64,000 nt of DNA from assembly GCA_964234715.1 (NCBI GenBank), contig OZ174287.1; one strand, given 5' to 3'. Positions 13,886 through 64,000 of this stretch are shown piece by piece (position 1 is the stretch's first letter; every line of letters starts with the position of its first letter). Position numbers and translations under genes: made by a program. A model generated the notes under the pieces. The model was not told the DNA's origin, searched no databases, and worked only from the letters and a program-made list of their open reading frames with translations. The DNA is from Podarcis melisellensis (Eukaryota).

Positions 13886-37917
<24,032 letters not shown>

Positions 37918-42490: not shown

Positions 42491-43376
42491 TACGGTGCTT
42501 GAGTTCCCTAAATCTATATTCCTTCCTTCTCAGACTTGAAAAAAAAATATTCTTGGGCTCAGAAGCAAGTTGAATTCAAGTGACCACTAGGCGTATCTAA
42601 ATATATATATGTGTGTGTATGTATTCACTTATCTGATAATAACAGAAGGATGCATTTCCTTCTGGAAGACCCTCTTTACTCACAAACCTGCAGTTGTATA
42701 TGTGCTCCATCTCAGCCTCTGCAGGTCTGCCCTGTTCTGCCTCTGAAACATTCAACCCTCTTACTTTACAAGGAATTCCATCGCCTAGCAACTGGGCTCT
42801 GGAAGCATTCCCATGGCAACTGCATCCCTGGCAGTTGGCTACCAATTGAAGGAGCATCTTGGTTGCATCCTACCCTCACAGGACGGGGCTTGAAAGGGAA
42901 GGAAGGGTCTGATGGTTTGTATCTTAACAGAGCTCAAGGGCCTTTTATGCATAGAAAATGGGAGGTGTGAAGGTGAAGGCCCCTGAATAGGAAGGGCACT
43001 TGCCACTAAGTCACATTGTGTTCCCAGTTGCTCAATTTCCAGGCCACCACCTTCGTACTCGGTGAGAGAGTCCTGTCCATTAAGTGTGGGCTGCAGAGGC
43101 ATTGATAGAGGCTGCCTCCCCCCAAAAAATTCCCCTTTTCCTTTTTTTAAAAAAACAACTTTGTTTACAGGTCAGCTGGGAATGGTGTAAAGTATAGCAT
43201 TGGTAAGACCCCAGGCACTTGCCCTCTTTTTAATTTGCTCAGAGGCAGTACTTTGTAGTAGCATCTGAGAATTTGTGTCATTGGGATGTAGCTACCTTGC
43301 TGAGCACACGAGGTCGCAGGTTCAATCCCTCACAAATCCAGGTAGGACTTGCAGAAGTTATGCCCTGCCTGAAACC

Positions 43377-44345
43377 CCAGATGCCCCAGATACACTGACC
43401 AGATGTCTGGAAGCTGTGGCTGGATGGTTACGTGGGAGCCGGTTGAAGTTAAATCCTTCTAAGACAGAGGTCCTCTGGCTGGGACGGAGCGATATGGGAC
43501 TGAGGGGGCAACTGCCATCTCTTGCGGGGGTGCAATTAGTGCCAACATCGTCCGTTAAGAGTTTGGGTGTAATCTTCGATAACTCCCTCTCTATGGAGGC
43601 GCAGATTACAGCTATAACAAAGGCGGCATTTTTCCATCTCCGCCAAGCTAAGCAGTTGGCTCCTTATCTCTCTCGCCCTGACCTAGCCACTGTGATCCAC
43701 GCGACGGTCACCTCCAGACTGGATTATTGTAACTCGCTCTACGTGGGGCTGCCCTTGAGACTGACCCAGAAACTCCAGCGGGTGCAGAACGCCGCGGCGA
43801 GACTCCTTACGGGGTCTTCACTGCGAGATCATATCCATCCGGTATTATACCAGCTGCACTGGCTCCCGGTGGAGTACAGGATCAGGTTTAAGGTGCTGGT
43901 TCTCACCTTTAAAGCCCTATACGGCCTAGGACCCTCGTACCTACGGGACCGCCTCTCCTGGTATGTCCCACAGAGAAATTTACGGTCTGCAAATAAAAAC
44001 ATCCTAAAGATCCTAGGCCACAGAGAGGTTAGGCTGGCCTCAACCAGAGCCAGGCCCTTCTGGTGGAACACTCTGTCAGAAGAGACTAGGGCCCTGCGGG
44101 ACCTGACATCTTTCCGCAGGGCCTGCAAGACAGAGCTGTTCCACCAGGCCTTCGGTCAGGGCGCAGCCTGACCCCCCTCCTCTGGCAATCGGCAATCTAC
44201 ACAGAATTTGCTGGATGGTTGCCATTAATTTGATTTTAATTTGATTTACTTAATTTTTATAATGAATGTTTTTAGAATGTCGGATTATTTGATTGTTAGC
44301 CGCCCTGAGCCCAGCTCCGGCTGGGGAGGGCGGGATATAAATAAA

Positions 44346-53894: not shown

Positions 53895-55034
53895 TGTTAC
53901 GGAAAATCTGGGTGCGTATTTACCCTGCCACCCAGCCAATCGGACCAAAGTCCGTGGGTCTTTGCGGAAGAAAAAGAAGCTCAGCCGGACGCAGGAGCAA
54001 AGTACGAAGATCCAAGTTTATTGGCCAACAGGTTCAAGACGAGATTTGAACCCCGAGAATGGGGCGACATAAACTTTTAAAAGTTCCCTCCAAGTCCCAG
54101 AATACAGTGCATGAAACGTCATGAATTCATTATGGGAAGGTTGGGTTTCATGGATTTCATCATGAATACATTACACACGTCACGAATATCTCAGAGAAGA
54201 GGTGGGGTTACACTAATTAACATTTGAGATAAGGGAGGGGGAAATATGTAGAGCGAGAGATACACATAGGTAAACATTTATCAAGTACCGGTGGTGGCAG
54301 GACAAAGGGCCAGAGATATGCATCGTCTGCCACCTGGTATTGCCCGGAGGAAGGGTTATGGGAGGTGATCCGACAGGATTAAGAAGTTCCTGTGTACGTG
54401 CCCTGTCGCTCTGGGGATTATGGAAGTAGGGATCGTATCATGGAGTGCGAAGGGAGCTGAGTTGAATGACACCAAGAGCAAAGAAATCGGAGTTATGGTT
54501 GATTTTATGTCAATTTCTAAAGGTTTCCTATGCCTTCTGACCTATTCTGTATTGGTGATCAAAAGCGGAAACAAAATGGACACATTGTAGCAAGAATGGA
54601 TACATTTTGACAGTTTTACGAGGTCTCTGGTTTCGGATCCATTGTTCTCACCGTGGGGGGCCGTCAGCAGCTTGTCAGTAGGTTCAATGAGGCGTGCAAG
54701 AGCTCCCTGAGCTAGCTCCTGCAGGACGAATGCATGGTTGTGATTGGCTAAGACGCAGCCATAGGAATAAGCGGAGATACAGGAGCGCCCGGTCTACTCG
54801 TTCTAAGTATGGAGCGCAAATAGCCATAGGAAGAGATAGGAGAATATATTCATATATTTGAGCTTATTTCGCTCGTGGAAGAAAGAAGGGAAAGAGGGGT
54901 TTTCTGGGAGAAGTGTGGTGCTTGTGCAACTGTGAGGGGGACTGGCGGTGGATACTCTTGAGGTCATCGCCTCGGTCGTTCACGGGAGAGGGGGGGGAAG
55001 AGGAGGTACCCCCCCCCGTTCCCGATCCGTATCA
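53895..55034 (-). repeat. 3' LTR of the ERV (~1140 bp)
   Basis: On - strand starts TGATACGGA directly after the PPT and ends TCCGTAACA (8/9 inverted repeat, TG...CA). TATA-like TTTTAAAA at 54075-54082; AATAAA at 54017-54022. Confidence 0.85.
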
Positions 55035-55045
55035 GTCCCCCATTC
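55035..55045 (-). promoter_or_regulatory. Polypurine tract
   Basis: GAATGGGGGAC immediately 5' of the LTR-initial TG. Confidence 0.8.
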
Positions 55046-55109
55046 GGAGATAGATTTGCATCAAAGTTCTGAAAGAACTTGCAAATCCTTTCTCCGCACC
55101 ACAGGAACG

Positions 55110-57134
55110 CTAAATTTCAGTGATCTCGTATTCCCCTTCCCCCAGATGCCTCATCTGTACATAGTCTGGGAAGGTGGTATGTTGGGAACGGGAATAGGCT
55201 CGGAGAGAGAAGGAGTTAGGCGGGGAGGAATGGCGGGGGCGAAGGAGGGAACAGCAGGGATTAATACAGTGCACAGTACAACATAAAACAGACACAGAAA
55301 GCACAGCGGTCAAGATGATGAGCAGCATGACTTTCAGTAATTGTCGGAGCCATCCCAACTTAGGTAACCATCCCCACAAGTCCACATCGGATAGTCCCTC
55401 ATGTTGGATATCGTGTAGTCTCCCTGCTAACTCGTGAATATTGTTCAAATGTCCAGTTATATTTAAGGTCTGGTCCGTCACGTATGTGCAGCACTCGGTG
55501 CCTATTAGGGCACAGGTGCCTCCTTGACTGGACAAGAGGAAGTCCGTTGCAATCCTCGTCTGTAAGCTCAACTGCCTTACCTCGGATAGTTCCGACATGA
55601 GAGAGTCCGTGATCTGGGTCGCCTCCTGCATAAACTTAAGGAGGATGTCAGTGAGCCGAAGGATATCCACATGGTTTGAACCGGCGCCGTAGGCAGGGAA
55701 AAGCGCTCGGCCTACGGTCTCCCCATTTGCAGCAACGTCTGACAGGTCTGACAGCTCCCTTTGTTCCCTCTTATTCCGTTGTCTTCCAGGGGGTAGGTGT
55801 GGAACTATCCTTATTCCGGGGACAATGTAGCCGACGAAGCAGGCTCCGGACATGTGTGGGCTCACCCATGTATATGCGCGGTGTCCGCACACCCAGAATA
55901 GGCCGCTGAGGTAAGATTCCATTCTGCCTGAAGCAAAGGTTTGCAGCAGCATGGAGTCCGAAGGTCGGGGCTTCCAGTCGAAGGGGTGTCCGACGGCAGC
56001 GGCCCAGGCGACTGTGAGATTTGGAAAAGTCCGGGACTCCCTTGTGTTGGTGAAGGTGACCAGGCCAGTTGGCAGGATTTCGAGAGTGTTGGGACATGTA
56101 CTGGATCCAATGAAGGTTCCTTCTCCGGAGAAGCTGCGGCAAAGGGGCCCCTTCGTGGGGCCGGTGAGATAGAGATATTGATGTGTCAAGTTGAGGGCGG
56201 TTAGGTTCCAGGAAGTAACGTTTCCGGAGCGGAATTGTTCCAAGGTCACTGGCACTGGGACTAGTGGGAGGCTCTGCTGTAGGTGGCTAGGCGCGTGGGC
56301 GCAGATCCAGCAGTCCGGGTACGGTGCCTCCTTTGCCACCTGGCTGAGAAGTTTAATATAGGAGTTTCGCTCCCAGGATGAAAGGAGGTCTTCTCCCGGG
56401 AGTGCAGAGTCAGTGCCGAACTGTCGAGGTGCTGTGCCGACTGGGTGGAGTGGGTCGGTAGTGTTTAATAACCGCCTATCCCTGGCGATACCGCCGCATC
56501 TCAGGGGTCCGGCATGGTCCCATGAGGGGGGGCGCGAAGGGTGTATGGGATGGTGCCAACCTTCAAGATATTCAGCCCCTTTCCACTCATGAGTGACCCC
56601 TAGGTTCCATAAGCAGCAGAATCGCCGCAGGCAGAGTCCCTGGAGTTGAGGCTTCTGGGTTTCTGGGGTGGAGAGGAGACACTGGAACCCGAAAATCAAG
56701 TTTCCAGAGGGGTGGTTTGAGCCCGTGTAAGCGTGGGAGGCCCCTCCTACCTCGACTTCGGTCCAGTTCGGGTTTAGTGAAATCTCTCCGTTCGCGTAGA
56801 GAAGATAAGTCCCGTTTTGGCAGGTTAAGCGGTAAGAGGAGTGGTCAAGAGTGAGGGCCGCGGACCCGATACGGCGCAAGTCCTTGTTTCGGATGAAAAG
56901 TTCCCAGTATTCGTCGTTGGCGAGTCGGGGTACTAAAGAATGGCGCAGTAAGGTCCGAGACTCTGGAAGGCAGAAATCAAAGTCCCCCATTCGATCAGGG
57001 TTAGACCTCCCCGTCTCGACCTCATGATAGTCCAAGAAGTGATAGGCCGTTTGTAACCCCGTGCAGTGGTCTGATGATGTGGACTTGACCCAGGATAAGG
57101 CGGTGAGAAGAAGGACGGTGCAGGCCAAATCCAT
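55110..57134 (-). CDS. env: ERV Env, gamma-type covalent SU-TM (674 aa)
   Basis: Kozak ACCATGG; signal peptide; CWIC (56301-56312); furin site RNKR (55767-55778); ISD-like LQTRIATDFLLSSQGGT; CX6CC (CALIGTECC); TM helix; cytoplasmic YxxPhi (YVQM). Confidence 0.95.
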   Translation of the reverse strand: MDLACTVLLLTALSWVKSTSSDHCTGLQTAYHFLDYHEVETGRSNPDRMGDFDFCLPESRTLLRHSLVPRLANDEYWELFIRNKDLRRIGSAALTLDHSSYRLTCQNGTYLLYANGEISLNPNWTEVEVGGASHAYTGSNHPSGNLIFGFQCLLSTPETQKPQLQGLCLRRFCCLWNLGVTHEWKGAEYLEGWHHPIHPSRPPSWDHAGPLRCGGIARDRRLLNTTDPLHPVGTAPRQFGTDSALPGEDLLSSWERNSYIKLLSQVAKEAPYPDCWICAHAPSHLQQSLPLVPVPVTLEQFRSGNVTSWNLTALNLTHQYLYLTGPTKGPLCRSFSGEGTFIGSSTCPNTLEILPTGLVTFTNTRESRTFPNLTVAWAAAVGHPFDWKPRPSDSMLLQTFASGRMESYLSGLFWVCGHRAYTWVSPHMSGACFVGYIVPGIRIVPHLPPGRQRNKREQRELSDLSDVAANGETVGRALFPAYGAGSNHVDILRLTDILLKFMQEATQITDSLMSELSEVRQLSLQTRIATDFLLSSQGGTCALIGTECCTYVTDQTLNITGHLNNIHELAGRLHDIQHEGLSDVDLWGWLPKLGWLRQLLKVMLLIILTAVLSVSVLCCTVHCINPCCSLLRPRHSSPPNSFSLRAYSRSQHTTFPDYVQMRHLGEGEYEITEI

Positions 57135-57212
57135 GGTCTGGATGCGTGTGGGGAGAGCACAAATAGTCAGACGAGCGAAGGTGTTCAGATAAAGCGAGGC
57201 TGTAAAGTGCAG

Positions 57213-57550
57213 CTATCAGATGAACTGTCAAACGAGGCTGTCAAACGAGGTAAGCTGTCAACGGAGCTGTCAAATGAAGCTGTCAGATGAACTGTCAAAC
57301 GAGGCTGTCAAACGAAGCAAGCTGTCAACGGAGCTGTCGAATGAAGCTGTCAGATGAACTGTCAAACGAGGCTGTTAACGAGGCTGTCAAAGGAAGCGAG
57401 CTGTCAACGGAGCTGTCAAATGAAGCTGTCAGATGAACTGTCAAACGAGGCTGTTAACGAGGCTGTCAAAGGAAGCGAGCTGTCAACGGAGCTGTCAAAT
57501 GAAGCTGTCAGATGAACTGTCAAACGAGGCTGTTAAACGCGGCTGTCACC
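57213..57550. repeat. Higher-order tandem array of 12-17-bp CTGTCA/TGACAG monomers between pol and env
   Basis: Higher-order units start at 57213, 57280, 57347, 57426, 57505 (periods 67, 67, 79, 79); ~26 monomers, 21 with perfect CTGTCA. Confidence 0.95.
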
Positions 57551-60500
57551 GCGTCTGAAACGTAGCTTGATGGTGTTGGTATCCGGGATGATTTCGGACG
57601 TCCAGTTGGATGTCGTGGTGTCAGGTCCGGTCTGTTGGGCCCGACTTTGGCCCCGATCTGCTGGTCCGGTCTGTTGAGCCCGACTTTGGCCCCGATCTGC
57701 TGGTCCGGTCTGTTGAGCCCGACTTTGGCCCCGATCTGCTGGTCCGGTCTGTTGAGCCCGACTTTGGCCCCGATCTGCTGGTCCGGTCTGTTGATCGTCG
57801 TCGTCAATGTATGAGATCGGTGGAGTAGGTGGAGTCGAAAAGGTGAAGTCCTCGCCGTTGCTCTCTTCAGTCTCTTGTGGAGGGGGTGAGGACTTGCACC
57901 TAGTGTGATGTAACCAAGAATTCTTCTCACCTACTTTCACGGCGGTTGGCGATGTCAAGAGCACTTGGTAGGGGCCTTCCCACGCGGGTTGGAGTGGTTC
58001 CTTCTGGTAGACTTTGACGAGGATCCAGTCACCAGGGTGGAAGGAGTGGGCGTGGACGTCGATGGGCAGGTTCTGTCCCTCGATGGCCGCGTAGTGGTGG
58101 AGGCGCTGTAGTTGTGTCTGGAGCTGAATAACATAATTAGTAAGTTCTGCCTCCCCCAGCTCCAGTTCTGAAAGTGGGAATAGAGTGTTGTAGACGGGAG
58201 GAGGTCTCCCGAATAAAAGTTCGAATGGAGAGAGTTTCAAACGTCCGGTTGGGGCGCTGCGGATGTTATGAAGAACCAGTGGGAGTGCATTCACCCATTT
58301 TAGGCCAGTGAGCTCGCAAAGTTTGCCCAACTGTATTTTTATTTCCTGGTTCATACGCTCTACTTGGCCAGAGGATTGTGGGTGGTATGGAGTGTGGAGG
58401 TCCCATTTAATTTGGAGTGTTTTGGCCACTAATTGCACCACTTCCGCAGTAAAGTGGGTTCCCCTATCGCTATCTAAGCGGCGGGGTATGCCATAGCGGG
58501 GAATGATATCCTGTAGGAGGGCTCTGGCGACTACGGACGCGGTAGCTTTTCGGCAAGGGAATCCCTCCACCCACGAGGAGAATTGGTCCACTATAATCAA
58601 AGCATGTTTAAAGCCTTGGCATTGGGGCAGATCAATAAAATCAAGCTGCAAGTTCTCAAAAGGGACAAAGGCCCATGGTCTGGCTCCTGGTGGCCTCCTG
58701 GGTTCACGCTTGGGATTGAAGCGATGGCAAGTAATGCAATTCTTTGATGCTGCTGCTGCGGCGGCAGCTATCCCGGGTGCATACCAAGATCTAATGATAT
58801 GTTCCATTAATCTCCCTTTTCCCCAATGTGTCCGCTGATGAAGAATCCTCACTACTTTTGGAGTCCAGGCCTTTGGAAGGACGGTTCTGCCATCGGGGAG
58901 GACCCAGATGCCCTGTTGTTCGGTGGCACCTATCGATTCCCACATAGCCTTTTCATCCCCTGGGGCAGATTTGTAGATTTCCGTAAGGTCAAGGTCTGCT
59001 GGTAGTTGGAGGGCTTGAAACTCGGATTCATTGTTGGGGATGCGTAGGGCAGCCATCTGTGCGGCTTTGTCGGCTCGTCTGTTTCCTTTAGATACCGAGT
59101 CCCTGCCCTTGGTATGGGCTTTGCAGTGGACAACGGCTATAGCGGCCGGTAGATGGATCGCCGTGAGAAGTCGCTCAACTAGGGCGGCGTGCGAGATTTG
59201 AGACCCGGCGGCGGTTAAAAAACCTCTCTGGAGCCAAATTTGGCCGGTTGTATGCACCAGACCGAAACAGTATTTACTATCAGTATAGATGGTTATCCGC
59301 TTCCCTTCACCAATCTCGCAGGCACGCAGCAGCGCAATTAATTCGGCGGCTTGGGCACTGTACTGGGAGTTAATTGGGTTTGACTCTAGTACTTCGAAGT
59401 CGGAGACCACCGCATACCCAGTCTTCCTAACCCCGTCGATTACTTTAGAACTACCATCAGTATATAGTATTAGGTCCGGGTTCTCCAGGGGGAGATGATC
59501 TAAATCTTCACGGGGCTTTTCGGCTTGCCGGACTATAGTGGTGCAGTCATGATGTGGGGTGCCATCATCAGGAAGGGGTAGCAGGGTAGCGGGGTTTAGG
59601 GAGTTGACACGTTTAATGGTGACATTGGTTGGGGTTAGTAGGAGGGCTTCGTATCGGTTGAGGCGGGAGTTTGAGAAATGGTGGCATCCTTTTAAGGTTA
59701 AGAGGGTTGAGACTGAATGGGGAACGTGAAGGGTGATTTCGTGGCCCAGGACTGTTTCTTGGGCTTTCTCGAGGAGGACAGCAGCGGCTGCAATGGCTCT
59801 CAGGCAACTGACAGCCCCTTTAGCAGTGTTGTCGAGTTGCAGACTATAATATGCTACTGGCCTCTCTTGGTCGCGAAAGGGTTGGGTTAGGACACCGGAG
59901 GCTACCCCCATTTGCTCGTGGATGAAGAGGTTGAAAGGGATTCGGTAGTCGGGTAATCCTAGGGCAGGGGCAGATCTGAGTTCCCGTTTTAGTCGTTCGA
60001 AAGAGTTGTAAGCTTCTTTTTCCCAGACCAAGGTGTCTGGGTGGTCCTGACGCGTCATAACAGTTAAGGGCTTCGTTATTTCGCTGTAACCAGCGATCCA
60101 TGCTCGGCAGAAGCCGGCCATGCCAAGGAAGCCGCGCAACTGTCGTTTTGTTTTTGGGAGAGGGATTTTAGTAACTGCCTCAATCCTGTCAGTGGCTAGA
60201 CTTCGGGTCCCTACTCCCAAGATGTGTCCCAGATACTTGACTTCTTGTTTACAATATTGGAGTTTCTTTGGAGACACCTTATGTCCTTTCTTTGCTAATT
60301 CTGATAGGAGGTGTTTAGTGTCTATCTTACACGCCTCCTCACTGGTAGAACACAATAAAATATCATCCACGTAGAGAAGCAAGGTGGAGCTAGCCGGTAG
60401 GTGGATGTCCTCTAAGTCCTGATGTAATACGGCCGAAAAAATTGCGGGTGACTCTACATAGCCTTGGGGCAGTCTGGTCCAAGTTAGTTGGCCGGGTCCC

Positions 60501-61411
60501 CAGGTAAATGCAAAAAGGAATTGGCTGGCCGGGTCCAAGGGTATACTGAAGAAGGCGGAACACAGATCTGCGGCGGAGTACCACGTCGTCCCTGCTGGAA
60601 TTGCGTTTAGGAGGGAGTTCGGGTTGCCCACTACCGGGTGTCTAGGTATTACGAATTGGTTCACTAATCTCAAGTCCTGTACAAAGCGGTACCGTATAGG
60701 TGCCCCCTCCTTTGCGGGCTTCTTGACCGGGAGAACTGGGGTATTACAGGGTGAAGCGCACGAGACTAGGATCCCCTTTTCGAGGAAGTCCTCAATCATG
60801 GGTGTTAGGCCTTCTATGGCTTCTTTGGGCAGAGGGTATTGCTTGGTGCACGGGAAGGGCAAGTCACTTCGGTAGGTGATCTTGACTGGAGTAGCAGAGA
60901 GTAAGAGTCCGACTGAGGTTGATTCAGTGCCCCATAGGGAGGGGGGCAATTCGTTTTCCAGGTCCAAAGGGAGTTCAGGAAACTGTCTGTCCGCTTTGGA
61001 TTCCTGGACGATACCTTGGAACATGGGAATAGAGTCCCCTGGCATATGTAGGTAAATGCCATCCGAGGAGCATTTTATGGTGGCGTTAAGTTTGCAGAGG
61101 AGGTCTCTGCCAAGGAGATTGACAGGGCTGCTTGTTAGGAGGAAAGTGTGTTCCGCCAGTAATGGTCCGAGGGTGACTTTGGCCGGTCGCGAGAGCGGAC
61201 AAGTGCGGGGTATCCCATCCAGTCCCATTACTTTCTTGGTTACTGTCCCTGGTTGCAGGTGACTGTCGGTTAGGGTGGAATAGGTAGCCCCTGTGTCTAG
61301 TAGACATTGATAGGGGTGGCCGTCAATCTCGATAGTGCAGACCGGGTCCTCAGGTGACAATGCAAGAACAGGGCAGATGGTTTGGGTCTGACTGGGATCC
61401 CCTTCTAATTG
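57533..61411 (-). CDS. pol: ERV Pro-Pol (protease, RT, RNase H, integrase), in frame with gag across a single TGA
   Basis: LLDTGA protease; QDLR, LPQG, YVDD RT; YTDGS..AELIAL..YTDSKY RNase H; HHCC, D-D-E (LDFI, SDRG, VERMN) and WEGPY integrase. No stop between 61411 and TAA at 57535-57533. Confidence 0.97.
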   Translation of the reverse strand, partial: QLEGDPSQTQTICPVLALSPEDPVCTIEIDGHPYQCLLDTGATYSTLTDSHLQPGTVTKKVMGLDGIPRTCPLSRPAKVTLGPLLAEHTFLLTSSPVNLLGRDLLCKLNATIKCSSDGIYLHMPGDSIPMFQGIVQESKADRQFPELPLDLENELPPSLWGTESTSVGLLLSATPVKITYRSDLPFPCTKQYPLPKEAIEGLTPMIEDFLEKGILVSCASPCNTPVLPVKKPAKEGAPIRYRFVQDLRLVNQFVIPRHPVVGNPNSLLNAIPAGTTWYSAADLCSAFFSIPLDPASQFLFAFTWGPGQLTWTRLPQGYVESPAIFSAVLHQDLEDIHLPASSTLLLYVDDILLCSTSEEACKIDTKHLLSELAKKGHKVSPKKLQYCKQEVKYLGHILGVGTRSLATDRIEAVTKIPLPKTKRQLRGFLGMAGFCRAWIAGYSEITKPLTVMTRQDHPDTLVWEKEAYNSFERLKRELRSAPALGLPDYRIPFNLFIHEQMGVASGVLTQPFRDQERPVAYYSLQLDNTAKGAVSCLRAIAAAAVLLEKAQETVLGHEITLHVPHSVSTLLTLKGCHHFSNSRLNRYEALLLTPTNVTIKRVNSLNPATLLPLPDDGTPHHDCTTIVRQAEKPREDLDHLPLENPDLILYTDGSSKVIDGVRKTGYAVVSDFEVLESNPINSQYSAQAAELIALLRACEIGEGKRITIYTDSKYCFGLVHTTGQIWLQRGFLTAAGSQISHAALVERLLTAIHLPAAIAVVHCKAHTKGRDSVSKGNRRADKAAQMAALRIPNNESEFQALQLPADLDLTEIYKSAPGDEKAMWESIGATEQQGIWVLPDGRTVLPKAWTPKVVRILHQRTHWGKGRLMEHIIRSWYAPGIAAAAAAASKNCITCHRFNPKREPRRPPGARPWAFVPFENLQLDFIDLPQCQGFKHALIIVDQFSSWVEGFPCRKATASVVARALLQDIIPRYGIPRRLDSDRGTHFTAEVVQLVAKTLQIKWDLHTPYHPQSSGQVERMNQEIKIQLGKLCELTGLKWVNALPLVLHNIRSAPTGRLKLSPFELLFGRPPPVYNTLFPLSELELGEAELTNYVIQLQTQLQRLHHYAAIEGQNLPIDVHAHSFHPGDWILVKVYQKEPLQPAWEGPYQVLLTSPTAVKVGEKNSWLHHTRCKSSPPPQETEESNGEDFTFSTPPTPPISYIDDDDQQTGPADRGQSRAQQTGPADRGQSRAQQTGPADRGQSRAQQTGPADRGQSRAQQTGPDTTTSNWTSEIIPDTNTIKLRFRRGDSRV
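57624..57793 (-). repeat. 39-bp coding tandem repeat (x4.4) in integrase C-terminus
   Basis: Units start 57624, 57663, 57702, 57741, 57780; encodes (QQTGPADRGQSRA)x4. Confidence 0.97.
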
Positions 61412-63427
61412 TCAATAAGTGTCCTGATCATCGGGAGGCGGTTGGTTTGGGGGGTGCAAGGGAGGAGCGGTAGCGTTCACCCAAGGGTGGGCAGACTGGT
61501 CTATGGTTGGCATTTGGGTTCGGGGTCCCGATTGGGGTCGAGTTTGAGGTATCGGGTTCGAGGGCGTTGGTGGAGCATAAGCCGCTGGTTGGTGGTTGGT
61601 GTAGCCTGGGGTTACGTTGGGTTGCGGGGGGAAAGGTGGTTGGCTGGTTCTAGCAGGGAAGGACTTGGGTTCTTGCCCCCCGTAGGGTGGCGCATTTAGG
61701 TAAGGGCAGAATCTTTTTATGTGTCCTTCTTCCTGGCAGTAGTAGCACCCTCCAGTCCCCGGTCCCCATTGCCTATAGGGGTTTGGGGGTCCTCCTCCCC
61801 GGACCCCCTTTCCTCGGTTGAGACCTCTACCTCGGTTAGGGCCATAAGTGGTTTCCATACTTAGGGCCAAGATCTGTTCGACTTCGGATTTTGTCTCCTT
61901 TTTCTTTCTCTCATCTCGAGAGTTGTAGATGGATTTCGCAATGGACAAGATTTCATTTACACTCTTTCCATCATATCCAATTTGAAGATTCAGGGCTTTC
62001 CTAATGTCTTGGCAGGCCTGATCCTTGAAGAAACCTTTAACGATCACTTCATGTTGCGGATTCTCGGGGTCGATTCCTCCCCATGTTTTGATGGCGGAGA
62101 CTAATCTAGTATAATAATCAGAAGGGTGTTCGTTTGGCCCCTGCATTACCGTTTGGACTTTGGTCCAATTAACGGTGCGTTGTCCGGCTGCCTTTACGCC
62201 ATCCAGAATGGCTTTCTTAAATAGTTTCAAGCACCAGATCCCATTGGTCGTGTTATAATCCCATGTAGGTTCTACTCGAAGGGATTGTGCGGTGAGCGCC
62301 TGCAATCCTTGGGGCCGTCCCCTCTGGTAGTCGGGTGATTCTATAGCTTCCCCGGCTTTAGCCAGAATGTCCGCCTTCTCTGCCTCGTTGAAGAGGGCAT
62401 TCAGAAGGACGTGGACGTCCGCCCAGGTAGGATTGTGGGTGGAAAAGATTGCGCTGATCTGGCGGTGACATTTGTCCGGATCGTCCCTCAGGGAGGGCAT
62501 CTGGTTGGACCAAGTTACGAGGTCCGAAGTATAAAAGGGATGATGCGTATACACCATTCGTGGGGGTCCATCAGGTGAGAGAGGTGGGATCGGCAAAGCC
62601 CTTAGGGGCATCTGGATCGCTGTAGAGCTCACAGTAGAGCTCACTTGGTCAGAAGGTCCTGGGATCTCTTTGTCATGGTTCAGGGGCTCTGCTGTAAGCT
62701 CACAAGGCTCGGAGGGGAGATCCCAATTTCTGTTCGGGACAGGATCCTCAAGGGTGTTGTGGAGCGTTGAGGAAGGGGTTTTAGCTTTGGCCTGCCCGGG
62801 GTCTTTGGTTTTAGTCTGTCCAGAGTCCTTAGTTTTAGCCTGCCCAAGGTCTTTCTGGTCCTTTTTGGCTTGCAGCCTTGTGACTCTTCTGCTGCCTTGA
62901 GCCCCTTCCTCCCCCCCCTCTTCATCGCTACTCGAACCACTGTCAGACGACGGTGGTGGCGGTGGTCCTTGGTAGTAAAAGGGGACCAGGGCCTGCTGTA
63001 TATCCTCGTCTTCATAAGGGGGGGGCATTTGCTGTCGACCGGGATTCAATATAGGTAGCTGGTAAGAAGTTGTTCCCCTTGGGGCTTGGAGCACTCTCCT
63101 TACGGCCTCAAAGGTAGCCAGGTATTCCAACTGGCGGGGTTTTTCTTCTATTAAGTATTTCTTTAAGTAGTTCAAGCGCTCTTCATTAAACGAACCCCCT
63201 GCCGGCCAGCGTAGTTCGGGCTTGGCCGAGGCGGTACTGGCGGGCCAGATTTCAGAGCAGAGGTCCTCTAACTTTTCTTTGGATAATAGCTTGTGGCCAG
63301 GGATCGACTTCCAGTGCGTGATGACAAATTGGAGAGGAGAGTCGGGATCCTTCTGAGATCGGGATGGCTTTCTAGAAGCCTTCCTCCCAGAGTGAGCCCG
63401 CTCGTGTTTGGAAGCCTGGGTACCCAT
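61412..63427 (-). CDS. gag: ERV Gag polyprotein (671 aa)
   Basis: ATG in ACTATGG; MGTQAS myristoylation pattern (MGxxxS); PPPY late domain; MHR-like QGPNEHPSDYYTRL; one CX2CX4HX4C knuckle (CYYCQEEGHIKRFC); TGA stop. Confidence 0.95.
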   Translation of the reverse strand: MGTQASKHERAHSGRKASRKPSRSQKDPDSPLQFVITHWKSIPGHKLLSKEKLEDLCSEIWPASTASAKPELRWPAGGSFNEERLNYLKKYLIEEKPRQLEYLATFEAVRRVLQAPRGTTSYQLPILNPGRQQMPPPYEDEDIQQALVPFYYQGPPPPPSSDSGSSSDEEGGEEGAQGSRRVTRLQAKKDQKDLGQAKTKDSGQTKTKDPGQAKAKTPSSTLHNTLEDPVPNRNWDLPSEPCELTAEPLNHDKEIPGPSDQVSSTVSSTAIQMPLRALPIPPLSPDGPPRMVYTHHPFYTSDLVTWSNQMPSLRDDPDKCHRQISAIFSTHNPTWADVHVLLNALFNEAEKADILAKAGEAIESPDYQRGRPQGLQALTAQSLRVEPTWDYNTTNGIWCLKLFKKAILDGVKAAGQRTVNWTKVQTVMQGPNEHPSDYYTRLVSAIKTWGGIDPENPQHEVIVKGFFKDQACQDIRKALNLQIGYDGKSVNEILSIAKSIYNSRDERKKKETKSEVEQILALSMETTYGPNRGRGLNRGKGVRGGGPPNPYRQWGPGTGGCYYCQEEGHIKRFCPYLNAPPYGGQEPKSFPARTSQPPFPPQPNVTPGYTNHQPAAYAPPTPSNPIPQTRPQSGPRTQMPTIDQSAHPWVNATAPPLHPPNQPPPDDQDTY

Positions 63428-64000
63428 AGTATATTTCACGCGTGTCTAGACAGGAAAGAGGAGAGAGGGGTCGGTAAAGTTTGGTGGGCCTAGGGTGTTA
63501 CTCAATAAAGGGCTTGTAGTAACAGAGGGGTCTTCAGTCGCTTGGCAACTTCCTTAGAGAGTTTTTAAAGAGCTCTAGCTATCCGGTATTATTTCCTTTC
63601 CTATTTCCTTAACCAATAATCTGGGGTCCCTTTCCACTCTGCCAATCCTGCCCAATTCCTCATGGGCTATTCCCCCCCTGGCAACCTCCTACCTATCGAT
63701 TACTCTCAGGAAAAGGGGCCCTACTGAACGCCCGCGCCGTGCGGTGCCAGATCGGGTAGTCCCTGGATAGAACTTCGGGTCGAAAATCCCCCTTGCTTTC
63801 GGAAGCGGGCTTACAATACACGGGGTACGTAGCCCGACCGGTGCGGCTGGGATTGGGATAGAAAGCAAGACCACTTCCTGCCCCCTAGGAAGGACGCTCG
63901 GGAAGATCGGAAAAAGAGCTCCAACCCCTTGCTTTCAACTGGGATGCCCGTTGCGGAGAGTCGGCTATCTTTCAAGTCGGGTCACTCCGTCTTACCCTTC

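Follow-up and report, generated by a model that had tools for sequence, protein, structure and literature searches.

The gag gene of an endogenous retrovirus (ERV) in a 64,000-nt stretch of DNA from Podarcis melisellensis (GenBank assembly GCA_964234715.1, contig OZ174287.1; the whole stretch is hereafter called the window and is numbered from its first letter) ends in UGA, and pro-pol follows in the same reading frame. How is the Gag-Pol precursor of this lacertid class I element made? It is proposed here that a programmed readthrough event at the gag UGA probably yields it, with the hexamer CAAUUA adjoining the stop codon acting as primary stimulator in the fashion of tobamoviruses, with no involvement of a pseudoknot of the type found in murine leukemia virus (MLV) and possibly with an added RNA stem. 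The majority of the ribosomes would terminate at the UGA and release Gag, and a minority would insert tryptophan, arginine or cysteine and proceed into protease (PR), reverse transcriptase (RT) and integrase (IN). A predicted long-range stem located 9 nt past the stop may contribute, as in alphaviruses and benyviruses. The signal at the junction is real and, judged by analogy to systems described elsewhere, very probably functional. Papers given by PMC number are cited here on the basis of parts of their text.

61412..63427, minus strand: gag, 671 aa from ATG 63427 (MGTQ...), within a stop-to-stop open reading frame (ORF) of 677 aa at 63445-61412
57533..61411, minus strand: pro-pol, 1292 aa, in the order PR-RT-ribonuclease H (RH)-IN; DTG is residue 39 and the first Met is residue 62
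61412..61414, minus strand: gag UGA stop, candidate for readthrough; Gag of the relative P0122 ends at the equivalent residue
61406..61411, minus strand: CAAUUA hexamer, a type I (CARYYA) context by its sequence, with function in vertebrate cells taken from PMC4132726

One reading frame interrupted by a UGA codon

On the minus strand the junction reads GAC ACT TAT TGA CAA TTA GAA GGG GAT CCC. If the TGA is read as X, a single frame of 1964 residues extends from ATG 63427 with no other interruption. An earlier note on this DNA had reported the TGA at 61414-61412, CAATTA at 61411-61406, a frame shared by gag and pro-pol and a pol frame open to 57533, and the ORF list and the translation agree with it exactly. 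In the pol frame no AUG is located upstream of the protease active site (first Met at residue 62, DTG at residue 39), and initiation at an AUG would thus give no protease. Since no change of frame is involved either, the protease can be reached in a simple way only if the UGA is read through. Considering this layout, Gag-Pol most likely requires UGA readthrough.

Alternatively, Pol might be produced without readthrough, i.e., by a splice removing the stop codon, by an internal promoter or by initiation at a non-AUG codon. A pyrimidine-rich stretch ending in AG is found just upstream of the protease codons, the junction is spliced across in database models, and the yeast element Tca2, with its gag-UGA-pol layout, was reported with a promoter at the junction (PMC2194720). 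However, each of the four lacertid database models P0002, P0007, P0024 and P0124 exits gag at a position of its own and re-enters pol shortly before the protease, which suggests that the gene finders avoided an in-frame stop. Splicing, an internal promoter or non-AUG initiation would also leave the continuity of the frame across the stop and the presence of a known readthrough hexamer unexplained, and no AUG precedes the active site; these routes are considered highly improbable. Caution is advised in annotation, as database gene models splice around the gag stop.

The CAAUUA hexamer as candidate stimulator

CAA-UUA immediately 3' of the stop conforms to the type I readthrough signal, CAR-YYA. 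The stop itself is UGA and not the UAG of natural type I cases. The junction, UGA-CAAUUAGA, differs from type III signals, in which a G and a spacer of 8 nt rich in purines come after UAG, and as UGA-CAA it differs from the type II contexts UGA-CGG and UGA-CUA. It was shown that TGA followed by CAAUUA in the context of OPRL1 results in ~15% readthrough in cultured human cells, that all six nucleotides matter and that UGA behaves similarly to UAG (PMC4132726). CARYYA was described as effective at all three stop codons (PMC7026636). Moreover, according to a review of 2026 the type I motif is active in plants, mammals and yeast without downstream structure, and Arg, Cys or Trp are usually inserted at a read-through UGA (PMC13517186). 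For retroviruses, the required level of Gag-Pol is 5-10% that of Gag (PMC4178896). Based on the human-cell assay and on the activity of type I motifs without structure, CAAUUA is a candidate stimulator that may suffice by itself. The proposal of the earlier note that the lineage makes Gag-Pol by opal suppression with a CARYYA hexamer is partly supported, as no AUG precedes DTG and the motif acts after UGA in vertebrate cells; its extension to the lineage goes beyond the single junction sequence at hand, and its assumption of a linear signal is less secure, because a strong long-range stem is predicted to start 9 nt after the stop and could form part of the signal.

The window contains 22 matches to the 9-mer TRRCARYYA where 19.2 are expected. 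As this is no enrichment, presence of the motif alone is uninformative and its position is what counts. Within gag and pol, CARYYA occurs as an in-frame dicodon at nine of 1962 positions, the junction among them (~0.4%; codon usage also predicts 0.4%), and CAATTA at two of the 1962, junction included, with ~0.04% predicted by codon usage.

Decoding of the codon as selenocysteine has in its favor that it is UGA. In the region 54000-64000, no selenocysteine insertion sequence (SECIS) or other relevant Rfam match was found at E values up to 5, the search returning three weak unrelated matches, and the context is a known non-selenocysteine readthrough motif; the probability of selenocysteine decoding is regarded as negligible.

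The stop codon in related elements

Searches for homologues and for representatives yielded 268 other proteins. The last 41 Gag residues of P0122 match those encoded here at 80% and its C-terminus is at the same residue. As P0122 is a divergent relative, the position of the stop is not private to this copy. This bears on a further explanation, in which the TGA would have arisen in this copy alone, either as a nonsense mutation where the lineage has a fused gag-pol or as a change from UAG, with the hexamer being coincidental. It would fit that some distant elements, of the Pleurodeles family, are modeled as fused Gag-Pol and that the junction DNA is a single sequence, no relative's DNA having been seen. 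Next to the shared Gag terminus of P0122, all three ORFs are otherwise intact, and a search with the junction region returned nine matches of 1080-3437 aa, none of which is a fused lacertid Gag-Pol keeping the junction. A private mutation is accordingly rated as very unlikely.

Readthrough of the UGA stimulated by CAAUUA is preferred here, and several points weigh against it. Its support comes from a single junction sequence and from comparison with assays in the literature. P0122 is the only relative with an alignable Gag tail; the tail of the more distant P0129 is unalignable and ends differently. None of the 268 other proteins spans the junction or carries an X, so that these relatives show neither which stop codon is used nor whether Gln-Leu follows it. 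Pattern scans of genome contigs for homologous junction DNA gave 150 and 17 matches, among which no relative was confirmed. Finally, a coincidence of 0.4% is unlikely at one junction, yet it will occur somewhere across hundreds of ERV families.

A tryptophan at the stop-equivalent position of fused distant models was rejected as evidence. Among the 35 proteins scored, i.e., those with at least 45 residues upstream of a DTG-type motif, 13 carry W or X 30-42 residues before the aspartate; one of these is the window's own X, seven come from a single Pleurodeles-like family, one is a spliced model, and the remainder fits a background of 15%. In the fused Pleurodeles Gag-Pol models P0042, P0062, P0107 and P0120 the Trp is located 40 residues before the protease aspartate, and the UGA here at 39.

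RNA structure downstream of the stop codon

Two arms of a candidate stem are predicted in the protease gene.

61383..61402, minus strand: 5' arm (+10..+29), after a 9-nt spacer from the stop; predicted
61207..61227, minus strand: 3' arm (+185..+205), coding for the protease flap region MGLDGIP; predicted

The stem comprises 18 pairs with a duplex energy of about -30.0 kcal/mol, and the 3' arm is the best partner for the 5' arm among all scanned pol windows. The 215-nt fold containing it has a z value of -1.79, with 6 of 200 shuffles folding equally well. A duplex of -30.0 kcal/mol is reached at 7 of 1861 in-frame gag-pol positions (top 0.4%; four sites, the junction being one of them), and the stem energy is reached in 16 of 2000 synonymous resamplings overall and in 25 of 2000 if only the 5' arm is resampled. 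Four arm lengths give a stable rank if pairing is allowed over 250 or 400 nt (1-4 of 229-235 positions); with 150 nt the rank is not maintained. A long-range stem 8-12 nt past the stop, as in type II signals, is by this single-sequence prediction unusual for gag-pol and dependent on the folding window.

Other results speak against the stem. If the 5' arm is kept constant, an equally good duplex arises in 174 of 2000 resamplings. Of 14 window lengths, 8 give a pairing probability of at least 0.79 and the other 6 one of at most 0.39. The first 115 nt after the stop fold no better than shuffles (z +0.69). The 3' arm codes for the conserved protease flap, the span of 175 nt exceeds the loops of 101-154 nt in alphaviruses, and the statistic was chosen post hoc, once the fold had been seen. 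On these models a contribution of the stem to readthrough is possible and, on balance, somewhat doubtful. A hybrid signal, in which a CAAUUA of the tobacco mosaic virus (TMV) type on UGA is combined with an alphavirus-type stem that extends over ~200 nt into the protease gene, with both parts conserved throughout the lacertid family, is rather unlikely; if it were conserved, retroviruses would have converged independently on the solutions of plant viruses and alphaviruses.

Short-range structure within 150 nt was rejected as unremarkable, as 16-44 of 239 positions are equally strong. A search for H-type pseudoknots with stem 1 starting at +5..+17 gave no candidate; this is a weak test, because 46% of 193 background windows were empty as well and the finder, our own, was not validated on MLV.

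The predicted stem also raises the question of whether readthrough might be real and driven mainly by 3' RNA structure together with the C at +4, in the style of type II signals of alphaviruses or of epsilonretroviruses, with CAAUUA being incidental or minor. In its favor are the strong long-range stem predicted after a spacer of 9 nt, the extended stem-loop that Firth and Brierley give for Epsilonretrovirus (PMC3542737 Table 5), and the UGA-C without CARYYA of zebrafish ERV (ZFERV) (PMC13517186). However, the stability of the stem varies with the window, and the hexamer is the exact TMV sequence, expected at ~0.04% by codon usage and sufficient in human cells (PMC4132726), and a mainly structure-driven readthrough is considered quite improbable.

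Phylogenetic placement and comparison with known readthrough systems

The best Pol matches are ERV proteins of Podarcis muralis (97%), P. lilfordi and Zootoca, followed by elements of turtle, opossum, fish and amphibians. An RT tree was built from 35 rows, i.e., the window and 34 named records chosen from 120 listed matches, with long-branch rows omitted. The element falls inside a lacertid clade (support 100/99) and is excluded from a 16-row clade containing Rauscher MLV (100/100), and a quick tree of 72 rows, from which 8 short named rows and the unnamed rows were left out, concurs. The RT identity to MLV is 47%. Relative to a fish/amphibian group, the lacertid clade is placed with low support (79/65) in the RT tree, which does not contain walleye dermal sarcoma virus (WDSV), the swim bladder sarcoma virus of salmon (SSSV) and ZFERV, as these were absent from the retrieved proteins. 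The element is a class I ERV outside the MLV clade, and its RT does not place it with the gammaretroviruses. As it is not MLV-type, MLV, against which the earlier note had measured the junction, is the wrong yardstick. The same note saw no MLV-like pseudoknot by eye, which does not set the junction apart, as no pseudoknot was detected after the gag stops of WDSV and snakehead retrovirus (SnRV) either, according to the passages cited (PMC3835772). Its view of a different recoding solution is retained for the hexamer, for which no retroviral report was found, and has to be given up for the UGA. Since both UGA as gag stop and a missing pseudoknot have been described before, in retroviruses of fish and amphibians, the novelty is confined to the hexamer.

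The gag stop is given as UGA for SSSV (UGAAGA), ZFERV (UGACGA) and an ERV of the frog Rhinella marina (UGAAGU) (PMC13517186), and the gag stop of XtERV-S is TGA as well (PMC8278194). The present element resembles these as a non-mammalian retrovirus with in-frame gag and pol split by UGA, and differs from the contexts UGA-AGA, UGA-CGA and UGA-AGU of the first three, none of which is CAR, by its CAA. Readthrough in epsilonretroviruses and other non-gammaretroviruses is described as experimentally unverified, with unclear cis-elements, in the sections cited of the review of 2026 (PMC13517186). With type III signals as in MLV, the junction shares genome layout and purpose, and a G-run opens the predicted stem at +10 here and at +9 in MLV; unlike MLV, it has UGA-C instead of UAG-G, no compact pseudoknot by the unvalidated finder and an RT outside the MLV clade.

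The table of Firth and Brierley gives CARYYA, after UAG or UAA, for tobamo-, pomo- and benyviruses and Providence virus and for no retrovirus (PMC3542737 Table 5). Like these type I viruses, the element has an exact CAA-UUA adjoining the 3' side of an in-frame stop that precedes the polymerase ORF. Unlike the listed natural cases, which are plant and insect RNA viruses, it is a vertebrate retrovirus, its stop is UGA and its positions -1 and -2 are not adenines. In benyviruses CAA-UUA goes together with a stem-loop predicted after a spacer of 9 nt (PMC3159437), a combination of hexamer and predicted stem similar to the one here. The readthrough stems of alphaviruses have spacers of 8-12 nt and loops of 101-154 nt (PMC3159437). 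With type II signals as in the alphaviruses Venezuelan equine encephalitis virus (VEEV) and Sindbis virus (SINV), the junction has in common UGA-C, a spacer within 8-12 nt and a bulged long-range stem enclosing more than 100 nt; it differs in having CAA-UUA and not CGG or CUA, and its stem is a single-sequence prediction without support by covariation.

Among retroelements, the soybean copia element SIRE1 uses stop codon suppression (PMC2194720), and a fungal element has gag-UGA-pol without CARYYA (PMC3441728). Unlike SIRE1, a plant retrotransposon with suppression at a pol/env-like junction, the present element is a vertebrate retrovirus with the signal at the gag-pol junction. The stop context of SIRE1 is, we assume, CARYYA-like.

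CARYYA at a retroviral gag-pol junction was not found in the literature searched, which left subscription papers largely outside, so that absence from print is not established. In the text searched of the Firth 2011 supplement retroviruses are not mentioned, and as many entries are given by accession only, retroviral rows could be missed. Within this scope, the UGA-CAAUUA gag stop and a possible long-range stem form a combination found in no described retrovirus. The proposed mechanism is a variation on known readthrough and no new kind of recoding. If it is true, type I signals would occur in vertebrate retroviruses as well as in the RNA viruses of plants and insects, and among class I elements the pseudoknot of MLV would be one of several solutions. 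As a candidate the junction is compact and testable, comprising a linear signal already known and a defined, predicted stem of long range, and the reptile provirus that carries it is intact.

The provirus and the remainder of the window

The class I provirus on the minus strand is coding-intact, with gag, pro-pol and env all open. It has one gag/pro-pol frame split by a single stop, the order PR-RT-RH-IN, and Pfam matches to Gag_p30 in gag, to RVP, RVT_1, RNase_H, rve and MLVIN_C in pro-pol and to TLV_coat in the ORF 57212-55110, of which Gag_p30, MLVIN_C and TLV_coat characterize a class I (gamma/epsilon-like) ERV. Gag has a myristoylation-type MG start, a capsid (CA) domain (Gag_p30), one CCHC knuckle and the C-terminus ...DDQDTY. 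The tail following the lone knuckle consists of ~95 proline-rich residues (61415-61700, minus strand), the last 41 of which are better conserved in comparison to P0122 (80%) than the rest. Further features of the provirus are:

55110..57134, minus strand: env, from ATG 57134, in the stop-to-stop ORF 57212-55110 of 700 aa; gamma-type
53895..55034, minus strand: probable 3' long terminal repeat (LTR), TG...CA, with a terminal inverted repeat matching at 8/9 nt and a purine-rich tract just before it; boundaries inferred
57140..57540, minus strand: tandem array between pol and env, with TGACAG-rich units of 67-79 nt

The motifs in env are presumably CWIC in the surface subunit (SU), a furin site and CX6CC in the transmembrane subunit (TM). 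The probable LTR is long (~1140 nt), and the 5' LTR is located outside the window, past its end. The long LTR and the three intact viral ORFs point to a recent insertion, which suggests that the element is a young lacertid class I ERV.

The array at 57140-57540 is located directly upstream of the likely env splice acceptor and of ATG 57134. The region 57120-57560 contains 21 of the 23 TGACAG hexamers of the provirus, and the array folds more weakly than all 100 of 100 shuffles (z +2.8). Its function might lie in splicing or RNA export, or it might consist of repeated sites for TALE-homeodomain proteins, whose site motif we take TGACAG to be. In addition, a 39-nt repeat at 57624-57794 (minus strand; 4.4 copies, 99% identical) encodes a 13-aa repeat in the C-terminal tail of the integrase, and P0127 carries a similar repeat.

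Outside the provirus, a stop-free frame of 767 aa at 26172-28475 (plus strand) has no Pfam match and probably consists of host exons including a long acidic one; its start resembles, in our estimation, the coiled coil of a TAO kinase. A frame of 300 aa at 43269-44171 (plus strand), likewise with no Pfam match, is presumably the C-terminal part of ORF2 of a long interspersed nuclear element (LINE). Finally, a dispersed repeat of 77 nt, which we assume to be related to a squamate short interspersed nuclear element (SINE), is present in four copies at 17822, 20349, 46692 and 53619.

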